Part shown: positions 44,535 to 53,926 of the stretch, piece by piece
How the letters are laid out: every line of letters begins with the position of its first letter
Numbering within the stretch: position 1 is the stretch's first letter
Assembly (NCBI GenBank): GCA_963748625.1
Contig: CAVVJT010000007.1
Span: forward strand, 64,001 to 128,000
Direction of reading: 5' to 3'
DNA: 64,000 bases
Source of the DNA: an uncultured Chloroflexia bacterium
GTDB lineage: Bacteria > Chloroflexota > Limnocylindria > Limnocylindrales > CSP1-4
Translations under genes and position numbers: made by a program
Notes under the pieces: model-generated
What the model was told of the DNA's origin: nothing
Database searches by the model: none
The model's input: the letters and a program-made list of their open reading frames with translations, nothing else

Positions 44535-45424
44535 CGGTGGAGACGAGGCACATCCTGTGCAGCGCGTGTGGTGTTAACCGTTTCGTTCCCCTGTCCTCGG
44601 TGGACGGATGGACGATCGGGCGCTGCGGGGCCTGCGGCCTCGTCTACGTCAACCCGTCCGCATTCTTCGAACCCACGGAAGCGTTCTCCGACATCTCGCG
44701 CGGGTTCGCATACACCGAGTACATGCACCAGCCTGTCACCCCCGCGATTCTGGAGTTCGAGCGACGACAGCTGCTCGCGAACGCGGGCGAGCTTGCGCGG
44801 CTCGCGCCGGCGCCACACCTGTCCGACGGGCGCCTGCGATTCCTTGACCTGGGCTGCGGGTCCGGTGCCTCGGTACGTGCCGCGACGGATCTCGGGTGGG
44901 ATGCGATCGGGGTCGACATCGATCCTTTGCTCGTTCACGAGGGCAAGGAGTCGCTCGGCGTCGACCTGCGGTGTGTCTCCATCCTCGATAGCGGCCTTCC
45001 GGCCGGCGGCTTTGACTTCATCAAGCTCCGCGACGTCGTCGAGCACCTGCCCAACCCACTCGAGGTCCTGGGGATGGTCGCCCGGCTGCTCGCGCCAGGT
45101 GGCACTGCGCTTCTCGTCACACCGAACGAGGGTGGCCTCGCGACCCGCGCGCGCGTCGCGCTACGGCGTCGCCCCTCCCTCGTGGCCACTGTTCCGCCGC
45201 CGCACCATCTCCACTCCTTCAATCCGGACACGCTGGTGCGGACGATGTCCCGGGCAGGTCTCACGCCCGTGGGCACGTTCACGACGAGGCCAACCGACTG
45301 GCGGTACGTGACATCCAGCAACATGGCCCGGGCGCACAGCCGCCCTGTCCTGCAACCCCTCTGGCGGATCGGGCAGGCACTTGGAATGGGGGCCGTTCTC
45401 GTCAGTTGGGCGGTCCGTCAGTAG
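44531..45424 (+). CDS. class I SAM methyltransferase with N-terminal Zn ribbon
   Basis: CSAC...CGACGLVYVNP, LDLGCGSG, DVVEHL, LAPGG, PHHLHSF. Confidence 0.88.
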   Translation: MTVETRHILCSACGVNRFVPLSSVDGWTIGRCGACGLVYVNPSAFFEPTEAFSDISRGFAYTEYMHQPVTPAILEFERRQLLANAGELARLAPAPHLSDGRLRFLDLGCGSGASVRAATDLGWDAIGVDIDPLLVHEGKESLGVDLRCVSILDSGLPAGGFDFIKLRDVVEHLPNPLEVLGMVARLLAPGGTALLVTPNEGGLATRARVALRRRPSLVATVPPPHHLHSFNPDTLVRTMSRAGLTPVGTFTTRPTDWRYVTSSNMARAHSRPVLQPLWRIGQALGMGAVLVSWAVRQ

Positions 45425-45455: not shown

Positions 45456-46133
45456 ATGACCTCTCTCCGGATACGGCTGGCCATCAAGCGGGGAATCGAC
45501 ATCGGCGGGGCGGCGTCAGCCCTGCTGGTGCTCTCGCCTGTGCTCGCTTGGGTCGCGCTGCTCGTCGCGGTGACGCAGGGTCTGCCGATCCTCTTCCGGC
45601 AGCGACGTCCGGGTCTTGGCGGAGCGCCGTTCGAGATCCTGAAGTTCCGGACGATGCGCGCTCCGCGAAAGGACGAGGTCTGGTACCTCACCGATGATGA
45701 GCGCGTTACGCGCGTGGGGCGGTTCCTGAGAGCTACGAGCCTCGACGAGCTCCCTGAGTTCTGGAACGTCCTCCGAGGCGACATGAGCCTCGTCGGTCCC
45801 CGTCCGCTGTTGATGGAGTACCTCGCAGAGTACTCGCCTGAGGAACAGCGGAGACACGACATGCGCCCCGGTGTCACGGGCTGGGCCGTGGTCAACGGGC
45901 GAAACCTCCTCGTGTTCAGGGACCGGCTGGCCCTCGATGGCTGGTACGTCGATCATTGGAGTCTGCGGCTCGACATCCGGATCCTCCTGATGACAGTCGC
46001 CCAGGTGATCAGGCGCCAGGGCGTGACCACGACAGAGGACTTGGCACTCGGGTTCCCCCTGCCAAGCACCGGACCCGATCCGACGACCCCCGGAGCAGAT
46101 GACCCAGCCGTCGTGGAACACGTACCCGACTGA
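45456..46133 (+). CDS. initiating phosphoglycosyl transferase (PglC-like sugar transferase)
   Basis: KRGIDI, KFRTM, SLDELP, GDMSLVGPRP, RPGVTGWA.VNGRN. Confidence 0.93.
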   Translation: MTSLRIRLAIKRGIDIGGAASALLVLSPVLAWVALLVAVTQGLPILFRQRRPGLGGAPFEILKFRTMRAPRKDEVWYLTDDERVTRVGRFLRATSLDELPEFWNVLRGDMSLVGPRPLLMEYLAEYSPEEQRRHDMRPGVTGWAVVNGRNLLVFRDRLALDGWYVDHWSLRLDIRILLMTVAQVIRRQGVTTTEDLALGFPLPSTGPDPTTPGADDPAVVEHVPD

Positions 46134-46150: not shown

Positions 46151-48133
46151 TCAGGGCTGGTCGATGGCGTATCGGAGGCCGACGACGATGTCCCGGTCAA
46201 ACGTTCCGGAGAACGTCGCCGTCGCCCCGGCCACAATGAGTTCCGGGCTGGCTGCAGTGATCCGGTAGCCGTCGGGCACCAGGATGCTGAGCGTGAGCGG
46301 CCCGGCCAGCAGGCCAGGCTGCTTCTGGATCGTCAGGCGGTACGTGCCGCCTTCGTCGTCGGCCTCGGCCGCGTATGGGCTCGTCCACGCGTACGTGAGG
46401 CTGGTGCTGCCGGGAGGCACCTGGAGGTACGCCCCGATCACCATCCTGCCGGCCTCGTTCTCGACCACCGCGGGATCGCTCAAGGGCATGGCTCCGCCGC
46501 CGCTAACAGCGCCGACTCGGCTGCGCTCGGGGACCACGACCCTGGAATACATCCCGAGAATCCGTCCACCGACGTTCTCCAAGGCCATGATGGCGTCTCC
46601 GGCCGCCGAGTCCACGGCGTTGTCCCAGGTCACCTGCAGCGAGTTGCTCGCATTGCCCACGGCGTCGAGGCGGATATCGAGATCGAGTGACCGAGTGGTG
46701 ACGATGTTGAGCTTCGACACGGGCGCCACGTTCGAATCAACGAGGTACACGAAGTCGCCGGCATCGTCTCGGACCGCGCCGGAGAAGCCGCCGCCGGCGA
46801 CCGCTGCCTGGTCTGCGGCGTCGACGAACCACGCCTGGAGGAGCCGATCCCGCCCGAGTGTCTCAACGGTGCCGACCAGATCGCCCCAACTCTGTGATGG
46901 CAGCGCCAGCATTGCCGCGACGAGACTATTGGCGAAAGCGAACAGAAATGCCTTCGCGTTCTCGCCCGGCGTGCGGGGAACCCGCGTGCGCTCAAGAACG
47001 GTCATCGTCGTCTCGCCTGGGGACACGGTCGTATCGAATCCGGGTACCGCGATCGGACCCGTGGCCTTCAGCAACTCGTCGATGGTGAAGGTGGTGATAG
47101 CGAGGACGCCGTCGAGGTCGCCATCGCCACTCTCGTTCGTGTAGAGGCGCAGGGCGTCCCTTGCGCTGGTGGGAAAGTCGGGTGACCAATTCGCGTCCGC
47201 GAACTGCCAGGGCTGCTTCGGTCCAAGCAGATAGTCTGCAAGCTCGCGGGGCGGGTCGATCCATGGGTAGTCAAACGGGAAGTCGAGGGGCCCGGTGTCC
47301 CGGAACCGGAGTTCCACGATCCGACCGCGGTCGAAGCCGACGATGGCGTACGTACCGAGGAATCCCCCAGTCGGACGCAACTCGGCAGGGTCCTGTGTGA
47401 GGACCAGGTAGCGCCGTGGTCCATCCCAGCCCAGGATGGACGGCAGCCGGGCGCTGACCTCGACGTAGGTGTCGAGGAGCGGGCCGTACGTGTCGATCCG
47501 CGCCGTCATCGCATCGCGGACGCTCTCCACCTGGCCCACCAGGCCGTCCGGCACCGCGGCAAGGTGCTGCCGGGCGCTCGCGACGGAGGCAGCAGCCGAG
47601 CTGACGCTGTCGCGGGTCGTGGCCATCAGCTCCACGAGCTGCGAGAGCGCGGAGGCGCGCGCCGGATCCGTGGCCTGCACGTCACGGATGTCGACGAACC
47701 GGCGCCCGACGACCAGCCCCTCGCCGACGGCATCAAGCAGGTCGCCGGCCGCAGCCACGACATCGTCCGCGCCACGCACGTTGGCGGCGGTGGGCGGGAG
47801 CGCGCGGGCGACCGCAACGAGTGGGTCGGTCGCAAGGAGGCTCTCGAGGCGGTCGAAGCGCCCGCGGGCCGCGGCCAGGTCGGCGTCAAGTGCGTCCATC
47901 GTGGCCCCGTCGATCCCCAGGCCGGCCTCCTTCACCCGGTCGACCATCGTCTCCAGGTCGGTCCGGAGCGCGCGCGCCTCGTCGAGCGCCGGCAGGTATC
48001 GGAGCGTGGCAAGGCCCGCGCCTAGGGCGAACGCGAGCACGAGGACAAGAGCGATGCCGCCCAGCACCACCCGCCGCCGGGGCCGGCCCCATCGCCGCGG
48101 AGCAGCCTCCGGTGCCACGCCACCCACGCTCAC
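46151..48133 (-). CDS. DUF4012 domain membrane-anchored protein
   Basis: N-terminal TM, helical region, RRYLVLTQDPAELRPTGGFLG, DANWSPDFPTSA, YRLTIQKQPG. GTG overlaps the sortase stop. Confidence 0.85.
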   Translation of the reverse strand: MSVGGVAPEAAPRRWGRPRRRVVLGGIALVLVLAFALGAGLATLRYLPALDEARALRTDLETMVDRVKEAGLGIDGATMDALDADLAAARGRFDRLESLLATDPLVAVARALPPTAANVRGADDVVAAAGDLLDAVGEGLVVGRRFVDIRDVQATDPARASALSQLVELMATTRDSVSSAAASVASARQHLAAVPDGLVGQVESVRDAMTARIDTYGPLLDTYVEVSARLPSILGWDGPRRYLVLTQDPAELRPTGGFLGTYAIVGFDRGRIVELRFRDTGPLDFPFDYPWIDPPRELADYLLGPKQPWQFADANWSPDFPTSARDALRLYTNESGDGDLDGVLAITTFTIDELLKATGPIAVPGFDTTVSPGETTMTVLERTRVPRTPGENAKAFLFAFANSLVAAMLALPSQSWGDLVGTVETLGRDRLLQAWFVDAADQAAVAGGGFSGAVRDDAGDFVYLVDSNVAPVSKLNIVTTRSLDLDIRLDAVGNASNSLQVTWDNAVDSAAGDAIMALENVGGRILGMYSRVVVPERSRVGAVSGGGAMPLSDPAVVENEAGRMVIGAYLQVPPGSTSLTYAWTSPYAAEADDEGGTYRLTIQKQPGLLAGPLTLSILVPDGYRITAASPELIVAGATATFSGTFDRDIVVGLRYAIDQP

Positions 48134-48855
48134 GGAGCCGGGTGCGCGATGACGATGAACCGGGGCGAGGTCGGGTGGTACGAGGTCGAGGTCTGCAGCG
48201 TCAACTGCTCGGTCTTCGTCGGCCGCACGTACTTCATGGCATCCCACGGGACCTTCGGGATGACCTCGTCCACGACGTACCGGCGCGCCGTCCCGTCGGC
48301 CAGGTCCAGCTCGATGACGTCGCCCACCTGCGCCTTCCACAGGTTGATGAACATCCCCTTGCGAGCATGGCCGTAGATATAGACGTTGGAACCGGCACCG
48401 GGCCACGCGGAGCCCGGGTAGTGGGCCGCCTTGTCGATCGGGGCGTCGATGCCATCACCCTCGACGATCCGGAGGTCGATGTCGAGCCGCTCGATCCGGA
48501 TCCGCTTCGCCTTGATGCCGTCGCCGGCAGCAGCGGTCGTGCTCGCGGACGGCTCCGCAGCGCCCGTGGCGTTGATCGAGCCCGTTGGGGTGAAGCTGGG
48601 CGCGGGGAGCTCGCTCGCGACCACGGGCACGAGGGACAGGTCCGCGTAGGCGGAGGTCGCCGCGGCGTCGGCGGTCGTCGATCCGGGCGTCGACGCCGTT
48701 CCGTCGGGCCCTCCGAGTCCGCCGAACGTGATCGCGAGACCGGCGATGATCGCAACGGCCGAGACAGCGAGGGTCGCGACGAGGACTGCCCTCCGATGCC
48801 GACCGCCGCTCGAGGAGGGCGGCGGCGAAGAGGTCGCGACGGGGCGCCCGGCCAT
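48130..48855 (-). CDS. sortase-family protein with Ser at the catalytic Cys position
   Basis: N-terminal TM, IRIERLDIDLRIVEG, AAHYPGSAWPG..NVYIYGH, GDVI, LTLQTS, PRFIVIA. Confidence 0.85.
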   Translation of the reverse strand: MAGRPVATSSPPPSSSGGRHRRAVLVATLAVSAVAIIAGLAITFGGLGGPDGTASTPGSTTADAAATSAYADLSLVPVVASELPAPSFTPTGSINATGAAEPSASTTAAAGDGIKAKRIRIERLDIDLRIVEGDGIDAPIDKAAHYPGSAWPGAGSNVYIYGHARKGMFINLWKAQVGDVIELDLADGTARRYVVDEVIPKVPWDAMKYVRPTKTEQLTLQTSTSYHPTSPRFIVIAHPAP

Positions 48856-48902
48856 GTCAGAGACTGAGGCAGTAGGTGGCCGGCCAGCCTGTCAGCCCGA
48901 CG

Positions 48903-49436
48903 TCAGGCCCAGCGCCGGAGTGCGATCGCGCCGCCGAAGAGGCCCGCAAGCACCAGGAGCAGGCCGACACCGACGGGCACACCACCTGCAGGCGCATCCC
49001 CCGGCAGGGTGGACGTCCGCGGCAGGCCACCGCACACCTGGGTCACGACCCCCGACGCGCTCACGTCGCCGGTTGTGCTCCCTTCGGCCGCGGTCACGGT
49101 CGCGCGGATCTGCCGCTGACCGCTGACAGCCCCCAGCGTCACGGTCGTCGTGGCGATGCCCTGCGCGTTCGTGACTGTCGGCGTCTTGTTGATTGTGTCC
49201 GACGCGGACTGCGTCGTCACGAAGGTCCAGGCCACCGACTGGTCGGCGACCGGGGCCCCGTTCGCGTCCAGGATGGTGGCGGTCATCGTGAACGGCTGGC
49301 CGCACGTGATCGTGCCCTGTGCGGCGACGCCGACGATCGCCTCGACCTGGCCCGTGTACCCGAAGGCGGTCGCAGTCGCCGTCAGCAGGATGATCACGGC
49401 CGCCAGACCGGCGACCCACCGAGTCCGGGCCCTCAT
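48903..49436 (-). CDS. Ig-like (Big_1-type) surface protein with C-terminal sorting signal LPRTS-TM-RR
   Basis: Signal peptide; TATILDANGAPVADQSVAW..TNAQGIATTTVTLG; LPRTS at 49011-49025, hydrophobic helix, ALRRWA tail. Confidence 0.82.
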   Translation of the reverse strand: MRARTRWVAGLAAVIILLTATATAFGYTGQVEAIVGVAAQGTITCGQPFTMTATILDANGAPVADQSVAWTFVTTQSASDTINKTPTVTNAQGIATTTVTLGAVSGQRQIRATVTAAEGSTTGDVSASGVVTQVCGGLPRTSTLPGDAPAGGVPVGVGLLLVLAGLFGGAIALRRWA

Positions 49437-49730
49437 CTCGTGCTCTCCCATCGCCGCGCGGTTGCGCTTGGCCGCGGAGACCTGTCGATCCACGGGTCTG
49501 GGGACGCAGCCAAGTCGTACGTCGGCCGCTGCCGACGCCGCGACACGCCGGATCCTACGCTCGGACGGCACCAATGGGTAGTACCTTCGGCCCCCTACTG
49601 AGCGTGCAGATGGTGCGCGGCGGCACCGGTCTCGGGGTCCCGCGGCGGTCGCTGCAGCGCGGCCCCCTGCTATCGTGGAGGCGCAGGCTTCCGTCCGGCC
49701 GAGCGTCGCAGCATGGAGCGCCGACGTCAG

Positions 49731-50363
49731 GTGATCGACCCAACCGCGCGCGTGCACCCGACAGCAGACCTGGAGCCTGACGTCTCCGTCGGCCCGGGGA
49801 CGAGCATCTGGAACCGCGCCCAGGTTCGGCGTGGTGCCTCGATCGGCGCAGAGTGCGTGGTCGGCCGCGACGCGTTCATCGACGAGGGCGTGGTCATCGG
49901 CGACCGGGTCAAGATCCAGAACGCCGCGCTCGTCTACCACGGCGTGACCGTGGAGGACGGCGTGTTCATCGGGCCGAACGCGATCCTCACAAACGACCGG
50001 TTCCCGCGCTCGATCACGGCCACCGGCGAGCTCTCACGGGCGGACGACTGGGTCGTGAGCCCCATCCGGCTGCGCACCGGCGCGTCGATCGGCGCTGGGG
50101 CGGTGGTGGTCGCCGGCAACGACGTCGGACGCTTCGCGACCGTGGGTGCAGGCGCCGTCGTCACCCGCGACGTCCCCGACCATGCGCTCGTCGCCGGCAA
50201 CCCGGCCCGTCGTCTCGGCTGGGTGTGCGCGTGCGGGCGACGCCTAGTGGACGATGCCTCGGACCCGTTCGGGGCAACCTCGTCGGGCCGCGCCGTGTGC
50301 CCTGCGTGTGCGACTGACTACCACGTCGAGGGCGACCGCTGCGTCGCCGCAACCAGGGGGTGA
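49731..50363 (+). CDS. hexapeptide-repeat N-acetyltransferase (WbpD-like)
   Basis: IGDRVKIQN, VFIGPNAILTND..PR, GASIGAGA, GAGAVVTRDVP..LVAGNPAR; C-terminal Cys cluster. Confidence 0.9.
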   Translation: MIDPTARVHPTADLEPDVSVGPGTSIWNRAQVRRGASIGAECVVGRDAFIDEGVVIGDRVKIQNAALVYHGVTVEDGVFIGPNAILTNDRFPRSITATGELSRADDWVVSPIRLRTGASIGAGAVVVAGNDVGRFATVGAGAVVTRDVPDHALVAGNPARRLGWVCACGRRLVDDASDPFGATSSGRAVCPACATDYHVEGDRCVAATRG

Positions 50364-50367
50364 CCGC

Positions 50368-51483
50368 GTGATCCCGATCTCGAAGCCGGACATCGGGACG
50401 GATGAGGAACAGGCCGTCCTCGAGGTCCTCCGATCCGGGATGCTGGCGATGGGCCGCCGGACGGCCGAGTTCGAGGAGGCGTGGGCCGCCTACTGTGGCG
50501 TCAAGCACGCGATCCTCATGGCGAACGGCACGGTCGCCCTCGAGGCGATCCTGAGGGCGATGGGGATCGGCCCGGGCGACGAGGTGATCACCGTCAGCTT
50601 CACGTTCAACGCCACCGTCAGCGCGATCCTCCAGGTGGGCGCCCGGCCAGTGTTCGTGGACATCCGGGCCGACGACTTCTGCATGGACCCCGACCTCGTC
50701 GAGGCGGCGATCTCGCCCCGCACAAAGGCAATCATGCCGGTCCACCTGTACGGCCTGATGGCGGACATGGACCCGCTCATCGCCGTTGCCCAGCGCCACG
50801 GGACCCCGATCATCGAGGACGCGGCCCAGGCACACGGCGCCACCCACCACGGCCGACGGGCGGGGCAGTTCGGACCCGCGATGTTCAGCCTGTACGCGAC
50901 CAAGAACCTCATGACGGGCGAGGGCGGCTTCGCCACGACCGACGACGACGCGCTGGCCGACCGGATCCGCCTGTACCGCAACCACGGCATGCGGGTGCGG
51001 TATCACCACGACGAGCTGGGCACGAACTTCAAGCCGACGGATCTCGCGGCGGCCCTGGGACTCGCCCAGCTTGCCCGCCTGGACGAGCGCACCAAGCGGC
51101 GCGCCGAGAACGCCGCCCGCCTCGCCGACGGGCTCCACGGCTACCTCACGCCTCTCGTCCCCGACGGGCGTGGCCATGCCTGGCACCAGTACACCATGCG
51201 CTTCCCCGGCGAGCGCCAGCAGGTCATCGACGGCCTCACGGAACGAGGGATCGGGACGCTCATCTACTACCCCATCCCGGTCCACCGCCAGGCCTACCTC
51301 CAGGCCTTCGTGCCCGGTGCGGCCGAGCTCGACCTGCCGGTCACGGACCGCCTCGCCGACGAGGTGCTCTCGATCCCGGTCCGGCCGAACCTCACCGAGA
51401 AGGAGCTCCAGGCCGTGATCGACGCCGTCCGCGAGGTCGCCACCCCGGTCCACGAGGGCACGACCGCCGGAGCCGGGCGATGA
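50368..51483 (+). CDS. DegT family aminotransferase (WbpE-like)
   Basis: NGTVALE, PVHLYG, IEDAAQAHGA, FSLYATKNLMTGEGG. Confidence 0.93.
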   Translation: MIPISKPDIGTDEEQAVLEVLRSGMLAMGRRTAEFEEAWAAYCGVKHAILMANGTVALEAILRAMGIGPGDEVITVSFTFNATVSAILQVGARPVFVDIRADDFCMDPDLVEAAISPRTKAIMPVHLYGLMADMDPLIAVAQRHGTPIIEDAAQAHGATHHGRRAGQFGPAMFSLYATKNLMTGEGGFATTDDDALADRIRLYRNHGMRVRYHHDELGTNFKPTDLAAALGLAQLARLDERTKRRAENAARLADGLHGYLTPLVPDGRGHAWHQYTMRFPGERQQVIDGLTERGIGTLIYYPIPVHRQAYLQAFVPGAAELDLPVTDRLADEVLSIPVRPNLTEKELQAVIDAVREVATPVHEGTTAGAGR

Positions 51484-52499
51484 CGGCGCCGCTGCGCGTC
51501 GGGCTCGCCGGCCTCGGCTCGATGGGCCGCAACCACCTCCGCCACCTATCGACCCGGACGGACTGCGAGCTGGTCGCGGTCGCCGATCCCGCACCGGATC
51601 TTGTGGCCGACGCGGTTGCCAAGACGGGCGCCGCCGGCTACGCGGACGCCCTCGCGATGATCGACGAAGCCGAGCTCGATGCGGTGGTGATCGCCGCGCC
51701 CACGACGGCCCACGCCCCGCTGGCGCTCGCCGCGATCGAGCGTGGCTTGCCGCTGCTGGTCGAGAAGCCGCTGGCCGCCACGGTTGCGGAAGGGATCGAG
51801 CTCGTCGCGGCGGCACGGAGGCGCGGCGTCCCCGTCCAGGTGGGCCACGTGGAGCGGTTCAACCCGGCCGTGCTCGAGCTGGGTCGCCGGATCGCGAAGG
51901 GGTGGGTCGGGACGCTCTATTCCATCACGAGCCGGCGGGCCGGACCCTTCCCCGCCCGGATCCGCGACGTCGGCGTGACGATCGACCTCGCGACCCACGA
52001 CGCGGACATCCTGTCGTGGATCGCCGGGGAGCGTCCGACCCGCGTGTACGCCGAGACGGCGCAGCGGCACCACGTGAGCAACGAGGACCTGCTGTTCGGG
52101 CTGCTGCACTTCCCGTCGGGTGCCACCGGCATGCTCGACGTCAACTGGCTGACCCCCGCGAAGCGGCGACAGCTCTCCGTCGTGGGCGAGTCCGGCATGT
52201 TCGAGCTGGACTACCTGACCCAGCGGCTGACGTTCACGAGCGCCGACATCGGCAGCCCCACGATCATCGACGGCTACGCGACGACGTTCGAGGGCAACGT
52301 TGTCGTCATCGATGTCGCCAGCCGGGAGCCCCTCGCCGCGGAACTGGACGCATTCCTCGCCGTCGCCCGCAGCGGCGGTCGTCCGGTGGTGGACGGCGAA
52401 GACGGCCTGTGGGCCCTGGCGATCGCCTCGAGCCTGCTGGAGGCGGCCTCGGCCGGCCGGCCGGTCAGCCTCGCGGACTTCACTGCGCGAGTGCCCTGA
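51480..52499 (+). CDS. Gfo/Idh/MocA oxidoreductase (WbpB-like)
   Basis: GLGSMGRNH, LVEKPLA, VGHVERFNPA, DLATHD. Confidence 0.92.
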   Translation: MTAPLRVGLAGLGSMGRNHLRHLSTRTDCELVAVADPAPDLVADAVAKTGAAGYADALAMIDEAELDAVVIAAPTTAHAPLALAAIERGLPLLVEKPLAATVAEGIELVAAARRRGVPVQVGHVERFNPAVLELGRRIAKGWVGTLYSITSRRAGPFPARIRDVGVTIDLATHDADILSWIAGERPTRVYAETAQRHHVSNEDLLFGLLHFPSGATGMLDVNWLTPAKRRQLSVVGESGMFELDYLTQRLTFTSADIGSPTIIDGYATTFEGNVVVIDVASREPLAAELDAFLAVARSGGRPVVDGEDGLWALAIASSLLEAASAGRPVSLADFTARVP

Positions 52500-52501
52500 T
52501 C

Positions 52502-53926
52502 GTGTCCATCACGGACCGGCCCTCGACGTCGGCCTCCCTGGTCGGCGGCGCGATCGCCCTGCCGGAGAACCCGTGCCTCCACGGCACAACCCGGCCCGTA
52601 GAGCGGTGGACCGGCGAGCCGGGGACTGCCGGTACCGTGATCGTGGTCGGGGCAGGCAAGATGGGCCTGCCCCTGGCCGCGCAGTTCGCATCGCACCAGT
52701 GGAAGGTGATCGCGGTCGACACGGACCCGACGGTCATCGCGGCGGTCAACGAAGGTCGATCCCATGTGCGTGGCGAGCCCGCGCTCGACGAGCGCATTGC
52801 GGACGCGCACGCCGCCGGGCGGCTCCGGGCGATGTGCGACGGGGTCGCGGCCGCGCGCGAAGCGGACGTCGTCGTCCTGATCGTCCCGGTGATGCTGGAT
52901 GACGCGAAGCAGCCCGACTACCGGCACATGGACGCTGCCGTCGCGTCGATCGCCCCCGGCCTGCGGGCCGGCGCAACCGTGATCTTCGAGACCACGCTGC
53001 CGGTCGGCGACACGCGCCACCGGTACGTGCCCCGGCTCGAGGAGGCCAGCGGCCTGGACGCGGACGACGACCTGTTCGTCGCGTTCTCGCCGGAGCGCCT
53101 GTTCAGCGGGGCTGTCCTCCGGAACCTGGCGACCTACCCCAAGCTCGTGGGCGGGATCGGGCCGGCATCAACGGAACGGGCGGCGCGCTTCTACGCATCC
53201 GTGCTCGACGCGGAGGTCGTGGCCATGAGCTCGGCCGAGGCCGCGGAGCTGAGCAAGTTGGCCGACACCACGTACCGCGACGTCAACATCGCGTTCGCAA
53301 ACCAGCTCGCGGCCTACGCGCAGCGTGTCGGCGTGGACGTCCACGAGGTGATCCGGGCGGCCAACAGCCAGCCGTACAGCCACATCCACCAGCCCGGCCT
53401 CGGGGTGGGCGGGCACTGCATCCCCGTCTACCCGCACTTCCTCCTGTCGAGGGCGCCCGAGATGGAGCTGGTGGAGGTGTCGAGGCGGGTGAACGACGGC
53501 CAGGTCGATGTCGCCGTGCGGATGCTGTCCGACGAGCTGGGCGGGCTCCGGGAGATCCCGGTCCTCGTCCTGGGCCTGACGTACCGGGAGGGCGTCAGGG
53601 AGCTCGCCTATTCGCGGGCGCTGCCACTGATCGGCGCGCTGGCCGCCGAAGGTGCCCTGGTCTCTGCCTGGGACCCGCTCCTGTCCGCGGACGACATCGA
53701 GCGGTGCGGGGCGGCACCCTGGGCCTGGGGATCCCCGAGCGATGCGCGGGCGGTTGTCACCCAGACGGCCGACCCGGCCTTTGCCCGGCTGGAGATGCCC
53801 TGGTTCCCGGACCTCGAGGTCGTCGTCGACGGCCGGAACAGCCTGCGGGACGTCACGTTCCCGGATCACGTGCGCGTGCTCGGCCTTGGCGTCCCGGCAC
53901 GGGGCGGGACGCGGCCAGGCTCGTGA
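52502..53926 (+). CDS. nucleotide-sugar 6-dehydrogenase (WbpA/WecC-like)
   Basis: VGAGKMGLPLA, ETTLPVG, FSPER, KLADTTYRDVNIA, GVGGHCIP, LGLTYR. Confidence 0.92.
   Translation: MSITDRPSTSASLVGGAIALPENPCLHGTTRPVERWTGEPGTAGTVIVVGAGKMGLPLAAQFASHQWKVIAVDTDPTVIAAVNEGRSHVRGEPALDERIADAHAAGRLRAMCDGVAAAREADVVVLIVPVMLDDAKQPDYRHMDAAVASIAPGLRAGATVIFETTLPVGDTRHRYVPRLEEASGLDADDDLFVAFSPERLFSGAVLRNLATYPKLVGGIGPASTERAARFYASVLDAEVVAMSSAEAAELSKLADTTYRDVNIAFANQLAAYAQRVGVDVHEVIRAANSQPYSHIHQPGLGVGGHCIPVYPHFLLSRAPEMELVEVSRRVNDGQVDVAVRMLSDELGGLREIPVLVLGLTYREGVRELAYSRALPLIGALAAEGALVSAWDPLLSADDIERCGAAPWAWGSPSDARAVVTQTADPAFARLEMPWFPDLEVVVDGRNSLRDVTFPDHVRVLGLGVPARGGTRPGS

Follow-up and report, generated by a model that had tools for sequence, protein, structure and literature searches.

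A cysteine-free sortase homolog with serine at the nucleophile position, encoded beside an LPxT(S/D)T-tagged Ig-like protein in Limnocylindria-type Chloroflexota

Introduction

Canonical sortases form MEROPS family C60. The sortase abstracts retrieved in our literature search uniformly describe cysteine transpeptidases, and inhibitor design, mechanistic models and protein ligation ('sortagging') all rest on the sortase thiol. In the present work we analysed a stretch of 64,000 nucleotides (hereafter called the window; positions 64,001 to 128,000 of contig CAVVJT010000007.1, assembly GCA_963748625.1) from an uncultured Chloroflexia bacterium, in which a sortase homolog has a serine, Ser223, at the position of the catalytic cysteine. 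We propose, with a probability of about 0.6, that this protein is an active serine-nucleophile sortase dedicated to the LPxT(S/D)T-tagged Ig-like protein encoded next to it. If so, sortases, a familiar kind of enzyme, would have a new catalytic variant.

The closest described proteins are C. perfringens SrtD (4d70), C. diphtheriae SrtA (6bwe/5k9a), A. oris SrtC2 (8t28) and T. fusca SrtE, with which our protein shares the eight-stranded barrel and the N-terminal anchor. As in these enzymes, the His lies past strand 4, the nucleophile position ends the TLxT strand and the Arg opens the next strand, and a dedicated neighbouring substrate carries an LPxT motif followed by a helix and a basic tail. 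The differences are the Ser that replaces the catalytic Cys, in a protein that is entirely Cys-free, and the sorting signal, in which LPxT is followed by Ser or Asp and then Thr, instead of Gly. The best structural matches were class C pilus sortases, which also combine a dedicated sortase with a small Ig-like substrate; unlike the class C pilins, the substrate described here has no conserved nucleophilic Lys.

Another related system is the LcpA-GspA-SrtA pathway of A. oris, a glycoprotein anchoring pathway (PMC6381275). There, as in our cassette, a sortase substrate is encoded with an envelope protein, and the likeness extends to the presence of sugar-nucleotide and glycan genes beside the cassette in this genome and its closest relatives. 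In contrast with the A. oris pathway, the DUF4012 protein of our cassette showed no likeness to LCP ligases in our comparisons, and linkage with sugar genes was found in just 5 of the 58 loci analysed below.

Exchange between Cys and Ser as nucleophile has precedents in the chymotrypsin-fold Ser and Cys proteases and in the DD- as compared with the LD-transpeptidases. Papain-like families with a conserved Ser in place of Cys also exist and are called 'poorly explored' (PMC10318531). All these cases illustrate a natural Cys/Ser swap within one fold, or transpeptidation by a serine, but they differ from sortases in fold and substrate and none concerns sortases. In full-text searches of literature outside subscription journals and supplements, judged from listings and abstracts, we found no paper on a serine-nucleophile sortase.

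Results and discussion

A sortase homolog without cysteine

The sortase-fold gene is located on the minus strand of the window and has the following features:

48130-48855, minus strand: sortase-fold gene (Pfam Sortase), 241 amino acids, without any Cys
48724-48789, minus strand: N-terminal membrane helix, residues 23-44
48133-48522, minus strand: catalytic domain, residues 112-241
48367-48369, minus strand: codon of His163 (in YIYGHA), the conserved sortase histidine, just past strand 157-161
48187-48189, minus strand: TCG codon of Ser223, at the catalytic-Cys position, last residue of strand 217-223
48160-48162, minus strand: codon of Arg232 (in SPRFIV), the conserved sortase arginine, which opens strand 232-239

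A low-complexity linker rich in Ala, Ser, Thr and Pro lies between the membrane helix and the catalytic domain. The Pfam Sortase profile (PF04203) matched the protein with an E-value of 2e-18 and 66.8 bits (cut-off 26.6). When the protein was aligned to solved sortases with phmmer, Ser223 fell opposite the Cys of TIVTC (4d70), TLVTC (8t28) and TLITC (6bwe), and SPRFIVIAH was paired with SHRLLVRAH. Ser223 is preceded by Gln221 (CAG) and Thr222 (ACC) and closes the motif TLQTS. The first-pass annotation of the window had described a sortase-fold protein that keeps the His (YIYGH) and the Arg (PRFIV) and has TLQTS, with a TCG codon at 48187-48189, and this description was confirmed by Pfam, by phmmer and by direct reading of the codon.

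An AlphaFold2 model built from 125 sequences had a pLDDT above 90 over residues 112-241, and the Ser, His and Arg occupied in it the placement of the canonical sortase triad. With this model, every match listed by Foldseek against the PDB was a sortase, with classes C, E, A and D represented, the best one being 6bwe_B with an E-value of 3.7e-9. None of the NCBIfam models for sortase classes A-F and GN reached its curated cut-off, the scores being 28.8-29.6 bits for class D (cut-offs 140-165), 22.9 for class E (160), 22.3 for class F (166), 20 for class C (160) and 19.2 for GN (158).

The search for a catalytic Cys in the TLxTC motif thus gave a negative answer, with Ser223 standing there instead. 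As there is no Cys anywhere in the protein, no other thiol could stand in. Judged by its sequence, the product of 48130-48855 is therefore a sortase homolog, but not a cysteine transpeptidase.

Conservation of the serine in homologs

A search for homologs gave 566 proteins with an E-value of 0.001 or less, and the analysis was carried out on the best 120 of these. The residue at the nucleophile position was Ser in 118 and Cys in 2 of them, and 107 of the 120 contained no Cys at all. The His was recognisable in 117, while the Arg position was occupied by Arg in 117 and by Lys in 2. We also searched for loci with a 12-sequence alignment (A2), in which the stretch EQLTLQTSTSY was invariant, and recovered 58 loci from named genome records, nearly all of them metagenome-assembled genomes (MAGs) assigned to Chloroflexota, Limnocylindria or Limnocylindrales. 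The nucleophile codon could be read in 54 parsed loci. It was a Ser codon in 51 of these, always of the TCN type (TCG 25, TCC 24, TCA 1, TCT 1), and a Cys codon, always TGC, in the remaining 3.

The conservation of TLQTS, which the first-pass annotation had put forward as a check, was thus borne out, Cys being the sole alternative seen in intact relatives. The same annotation had stressed that TCG is two base changes away from TGC. This is true of the present gene, but the 24 relatives with TCC are a single change away from TGC, and the codon usage is consistent with a single-step TGC/TCC exchange.

Two side observations concern the quality of the records. The contigs of two loci (L016 and L038) are labelled Isosphaeraceae and Propionibacteriales, and their proteins fall within the Chloroflexota clade; the labels could be due to mis-binning or to transfer. 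In addition, loci L019, L033, L052, L059 and L060 and several sortase open reading frames (ORFs) in L048-L054, which belong to one assembly series, contain broken reading frames. These look like frameshift errors in the MAG records rather than gene loss, and the frame-broken substrates and sortases of these loci were left out of the counts.

Could Ser223 stem from a sequencing or assembly error, or could the gene be that of an ordinary Cys sortase that was recently inactivated by mutation? No raw reads were found over the codon: in the raw-read indexes no run contained more than 0.20 of the sampled words, and the contigs of four runs (with a likeness of at least 85%) end at 48177 and resume at 48207, leaving 48187-48189 uncovered. 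Nevertheless, the same residue was found in 118 of the 120 listed homologs and in 51 of the 54 loci, which come from independent assemblies and use all four TCN codons, and the flanking motif is invariant. Such an error or mutation is effectively refuted by the homolog data, and we give it a negligible chance.

Interchange of serine and cysteine among relatives

To cover more distant relatives we used representatives at 50% identity. This search gave 1105 matches with an E-value of 0.001 or less, of which the best 150 were considered; after removal of 13 for their length, the remaining 137 were aligned with the query (138 rows). The nucleophile column contained Cys in 70 rows, Ser in 49, a gap in 8 and another residue in 11, and in most of the latter the flanking motif was also disrupted. 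Intact relatives in this alignment thus appear to hold only Ser or Cys at the nucleophile position. A look-up of clusters for the names of the other Ser clades returned none.

Two trees were computed. The first one contained 121 rows, 27 having been dropped because of an incomplete domain or a state other than C, S or H, and the trait column was kept. It required 9 changes between Cys and Ser, of which at least 4 were forced by branches starred for strong support. For the second tree (114 rows, comprising cassette orthologs and representatives), the trait column was removed, and 13 frameshifted or unparsable ORFs and the unpublished locus L068 were left out. It comprised 10 Cys/Ser changes, at least 3 of them forced by starred branches, and none of 500 label shuffles gave so low a number. 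Both were quick trees, with Shimodaira-Hasegawa-like approximate likelihood ratio (SH-aLRT) support only, and both were unrooted, so that they give no direction of change. In the two trees, Cys and Ser forms interleave within one clade.

The Cys forms that interleave with the Ser forms comprise both loci and proteins. Three Cys-type cassette orthologs (L038, L039 and L042) have the same gene order, an LPxT[S/T]T signal and the LTLQTx...PRF motifs, with TGC as the nucleophile codon. Three Cys-type proteins (P0053, P0054 and P0123), known from their motifs only, show the same motifs.

We compared the 77 Ser rows with the 37 Cys rows and found no other column that covaried with the Cys/Ser switch. 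His163 and Thr222 were conserved at 100% in both groups, Arg232 at 97% in the Ser rows vs 92% in the Cys rows, and the second His (His145) at 96% vs 92%. The motif of the clade is LTLQT[S/C], with an invariant Gln. Because no column covaries, the swap amounts to a clean single-residue exchange in an equally constrained active site. This pattern is what would be expected if both residues act as the nucleophile, and is unlike that of a decaying pseudoenzyme.

These data bear on the possibility, already raised in the first-pass annotation, that the protein is a catalytically dead pseudo-sortase, which would bind the LPxT(S/D)T tail as a chaperone, a retention factor or a scaffold, perhaps together with the DUF4012 protein. 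The defining Cys is indeed absent, Cys mutants of the sortases studied so far are inactive, the Ser comes without a compensating residue, and a weak contact with the DUF4012 protein was predicted (0.40, the best control being 0.00; see below). Yet a dispensable nucleophile should drift widely, while intact relatives show just Ser and Cys, these two alternate among close orthologs of one and the same cassette, and the His and the Arg are equally conserved in Ser and Cys rows. A retention factor would add little to a substrate that has its own membrane helix, and the genome contains neither a Cys sortase nor an exosortase to process its approximately 13 proteins with a sorting signal. Weakened in this manner by the conservation of Ser, His and Arg and by the co-occurrence with the substrate, a pseudo-sortase seems to us rather improbable.

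A conserved cassette with a tagged Ig-like protein

The sortase gene is the middle one of three genes, the features of which (besides those given above) are as follows:

46151-49436, minus strand: three-gene cassette, tightly packed, in the order Ig-like substrate, sortase, DUF4012
48903-49436, minus strand: substrate gene, 177 amino acids, product predicted to be secreted (from the ORF and Pfam)
49008-49025, minus strand: substrate sorting signal LPRTST, first element of the tripartite signal
48918-48980, minus strand: hydrophobic helix of the substrate, 21 residues, second element
48906-48917, minus strand: basic tail RRWA of the substrate, third element
46151-48133, minus strand: DUF4012 gene, 660 amino acids, with a GTG start that overlaps the sortase stop (GTGA)

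The N-terminus of the protein encoded by ORF 48903-49436 resembles a signal peptide. It is followed by a single Ig-like Big_1 domain (residues 48-122, positions 49071-49295; Pfam E-value 5.4e-9, 36.5 bits for a cut-off of 34.9). The C-terminal sequence is GGLPRTSTLPGDAPAGG, then comes the hydrophobic stretch of 21 residues and finally RRWA. The substrate and sortase genes are separated by 47 nt. An upstream gene with a signal peptide-like start, an Ig-like domain, LPRTS, a helix and an RR tail had been noticed in the first reading of the window, and the Big_1 match and the sequence agree with it.

As a side observation, contigs from a metatranscriptome (one sediment run, X20) matched the region 48989-49495, which covers part of the substrate gene, with approximately 94% identity (27 differences in 458 bases). 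The match represents the copy of a relative in an RNA library, which hints only weakly at expression because such libraries may also contain DNA.

Among the 55 loci in which the upstream flank spans 900 nt or more, 52 have a homolog of the Ig-like substrate directly upstream of the sortase, so that the co-occurrence with LPxT(S/D) proteins, which the first-pass annotation had put forward as a check, was indeed observed. The DUF4012 gene was found directly downstream in 50 of the 54 loci whose downstream flank spans 900 nt or more. The loci without these neighbours (L055-L058) are members of other sortase clades. Limnocylindria-type Chloroflexota thus share a conserved three-gene cassette.

Of the substrates, 47 carried an LPxTxx signal, which in 46 of them was part of a tripartite signal; that of L046 was assigned by eye after a mis-hit of the regular expression. 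In five substrates the tail could not be read, apparently owing to frameshifts in the assemblies concerned. In the 47 signals, the x residue was mostly Asn (20) or Arg (16). The Thr was followed by Ser (37 signals), Asp (9) or Thr (1), and the next residue was Thr in 43. The signals of the three Cys-type loci L038, L039 and L042 were LPPTST, LPNTST and LPNTTT. Since Cys orthologs share the same signal, the latter follows the lineage or the cassette, not the serine. Consequently, the first-pass suggestion of a serine subfamily with its own LPxTS signal holds in part: the Ser is conserved and would be the catalytic residue, but the signal is also present on three Cys-type orthologs.

No conserved Lys was found in the substrates, the best column containing one in 18 of 48 aligned rows. 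This argues against polymerisation into pili and in favour of simple anchoring. We had considered that the two proteins might be a pilus system, i.e. a class C sortase-pilin pair, and rejected this as the substrate lacks a conserved nucleophilic Lys.

Sortases and sorting signals in the rest of the genome

The source genome (4.63 Mb, 71% GC) is 98.3% complete, with 7.7% contamination. It contains two matches to the Sortase domain, both of which are Ser-type. No Cys sortase was found in this 98.3% complete genome, nor did we find an exosortase or archaeosortase domain in it. The possibility that another Cys sortase processes LPRTS, which had been named as one that would undermine the proposal, was therefore not borne out by the genome.

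The second sortase homolog lies outside the window (C7:1188436-1188798; locus L002 1396-2232, minus strand). It is a very divergent protein of 278 amino acids with the motifs TYIYSHA ... WLQTSEGP. In its family, Ser, His and, at the apparent Arg position, Lys (Lys250) were each found in 120 of 120 sequences. Members of this family are mostly annotated as 'hypothetical protein', and many have no precomputed Pfam match.

A scan for sorting signals, which looked for a C-terminal helix with a basic tail and applied filters for GC3 and hydropathy, retrieved the LPRTST protein of the window and approximately 12 proteins with a (T)PPPT[D/S][S/T] motif, a helix and an Arg-rich tail (RRR). Examples of the latter are encoded at C2:45906-60083 (locus L110), C4:250643-256288, C4:344539-345480, C4:362977-363711, C10:264632-265504 and C10:1270235-1271827. 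Three clustered ones are 957-1608 amino acids long and contain VWA, SpaA, DUF11 and DUF7507 domains, an architecture of the VWA/SpaA/DUF11 type being typical of sortase-anchored adhesins. The PPPT[D/S] proteins are candidate substrates of the second Ser-type sortase. With two Ser-type sortases only and approximately 13 proteins carrying a sorting signal, serine-type sortases alone are available to handle these proteins. The genome also contains six penicillin-binding protein (PBP) transpeptidase genes and four LCP ligase genes, which indicate a peptidoglycan wall with attached polymers, available as an acceptor.

Serine-type sortases in the class

In the class as a whole, Ser types predominate. 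A Sortase domain was found in 243 of the 301 genomes searched and in 123 of the 154 high-quality ones (11 unpublished genomes included). Among the 29 best-scoring loci, 22 had Ser (in LTLQTSTGP...DPRF) and 7 had Cys; without the unpublished L068, Ser was found in 21 of 28 (counted by eye). For most of the genomes concerned, this sortase match was the only one. Another family (loci L090-L109) read LTLQTSQG[YF]NRN[WY]GE in all 20 sampled members. Ser thus stands at the nucleophile position in this family and Glu takes the place of the Arg; 19 of these 20 genomes contained a single sortase match. A further feature of these homologs is an inserted loop with Cys (CPDP...C). In the rows that we examined, Glu occurred at the Arg position only alongside Ser, never alongside Cys.

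Proposed reaction and points that weigh against it

The observations presented above would fit with the following scheme. The sortase would be anchored in the membrane and extracytoplasmic, with Ser223 as its nucleophile. The substrate would be exported, and its C-terminal helix, together with the RRWA tail, would keep it in the membrane. Upon binding of LPRTST to the sortase, Ser223, activated by His163, would attack the carbonyl of the Thr, and cleavage would probably occur between Thr and Ser/Asp, by analogy with the cleavage of LPXTG after its Thr. An oxy-ester acyl-enzyme would replace the usual thioester, with Arg232 positioning the substrate and the oxyanion. Finally, an amine of the envelope, most likely a peptidoglycan precursor, would resolve the intermediate, and the Ig-like protein would become fixed to the wall. 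A textbook cysteine enzyme would thus probably also work with serine.

The last step could also be carried out by water. The protein would then be an active serine hydrolase, a sheddase or maturase that frees the Ig-like protein from its membrane anchor. Such a role agrees with all the evidence for an active Ser, general chemical reasoning indicates that an oxy-ester is less reactive toward amines than a thioester, and the acceptor was not identified in this analysis. PBPs show, though, that serine acyl-enzymes can transpeptidate, and peptidoglycan synthesis genes are present in the genome. Furthermore, a tripartite signal combined with a dedicated membrane-anchored sortase is the architecture of an anchoring system, and the Cys orthologs of the same cassette look like ordinary sortases. 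We consider a hydrolase unlikely.

Several points weigh against an active serine sortase. Its support is wholly comparative, and no raw reads were found over the codon at 48187-48189. S. aureus SrtA loses its activity when the active-site Cys is replaced, and Cys-to-Ser swaps usually cripple cysteine peptidases. The C184S form of SrtA has been described as a 'cys-less' scaffold, in a passage that contains no activity data (PMC5578623). In the comparison of the 77 Ser with the 37 Cys rows, no extra acidic or other compensating residue accompanied the Ser that would help the His to activate a hydroxyl, which is far less acidic than a thiol. Lastly, the sister clade with Glu at the Arg position (L090-L109) shows that the active site is not uniformly canonical among the Ser forms.

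An active Ser223 sortase would imply that a second type of catalysis is possible on the sortase fold. Natural pairs of matched Cys and Ser orthologs would then be available to study how a hydroxyl is activated by His and Arg, and thiol-independent, oxidation-resistant ligases with a new recognition motif could be obtained. It would also explain how an abundant uncultured lineage of soil and freshwater displays adhesin-like proteins on its surface without a Cys sortase, and would mean that 'sortase' annotations in these phyla conceal a different chemistry.

We give even odds to a broader proposal, according to which Limnocylindria-type Chloroflexota anchor their surface proteins by means of Cys-free serine sortases that form oxy-ester intermediates and recognise LPxT(S/D)T or PPPT(D/S) signals. 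At least four families would be involved, characterised by LQTSTS, LQTSTG, LQTSQG (Glu in place of the Arg) and WLQTSEG (Lys), and repeated Cys/Ser exchanges would have taken place in an active site that otherwise stayed the same. This broader proposal would make the class a source of natural oxidation-proof sortases of new specificity.

The DUF4012 protein

The third, co-transcribed gene of the cassette encodes a protein with a DUF4012 core at residues 237-382 (46988-47425; Pfam E-value 6.4e-31). The protein has an N-terminal membrane helix, and its AlphaFold2 model (mean pLDDT 80.3) consists of a long helical region on the N-terminal side, the core with an alpha/beta fold, and beta-rich domains at the C-terminus. 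DUF4012 families are stated to be enriched in Gram-positives, Cyanobacteria and Chloroflexi, one of them being found in a capsular polysaccharide/exopolysaccharide (CPS/EPS) cluster of B. longum (PMC6744442).

We tried to identify the fold of this protein with several approaches. Foldseek searches with the full-length model gave only low-TM matches (TMq of 0.20 or less), to beta-sandwich regions in OST subunits, M1 aminopeptidases and inter-alpha-inhibitor, and no LCP protein was among the listed matches. A profile search against the PDB gave nothing below an E-value of 0.058, and no LCP protein; a comparison with Pfam at E-values up to 10 gave nothing else of use, again with no LCP; and a search of the protein atlas gave no usable match. 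We considered that the protein might be an LCP homolog and did not adopt this idea, as hhalign gave a probability of 0.1% against the four LCP domains of the genome.

When the ectodomain of the DUF4012 protein was modelled in complex with the sortase domain, a score of 0.40 was obtained, the best control reaching 0.00. Of 80 solved complexes 58 reached this mark, and so did 2 of 110 mismatched pairs; at scores of 0.60 or under, only 7 of the 80 solved complexes reached it, and both of the passing mismatches did. The prediction runs agreed in at least 91% of the contacts, with a pLDDT of at least 84 for the partner. The prediction lends weak support to a contact between the two proteins, which was not used for the proposal of a serine sortase. 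The cassette sortase may additionally act in complex with the DUF4012 protein.

Genes around the cassette

On one side of the cassette, the plus strand (49713-53926) encodes a hexapeptide acetyltransferase, a DegT aminotransferase, a Gfo/Idh/MocA oxidoreductase and a UDP-sugar dehydrogenase. We take this set to be similar to WbpD/E/B/A, for the formation of a 2,3-diacetamido uronic acid. The idea that the sugar genes are part of the core system was rejected, as they were linked to the cassette in only 5 of the 58 loci, i.e. in the closest relatives of this genome. On the other side, also on the plus strand (45456-46133 and 44624-45424), are the genes of a Bac_transf initiating sugar transferase and of a methyltransferase.

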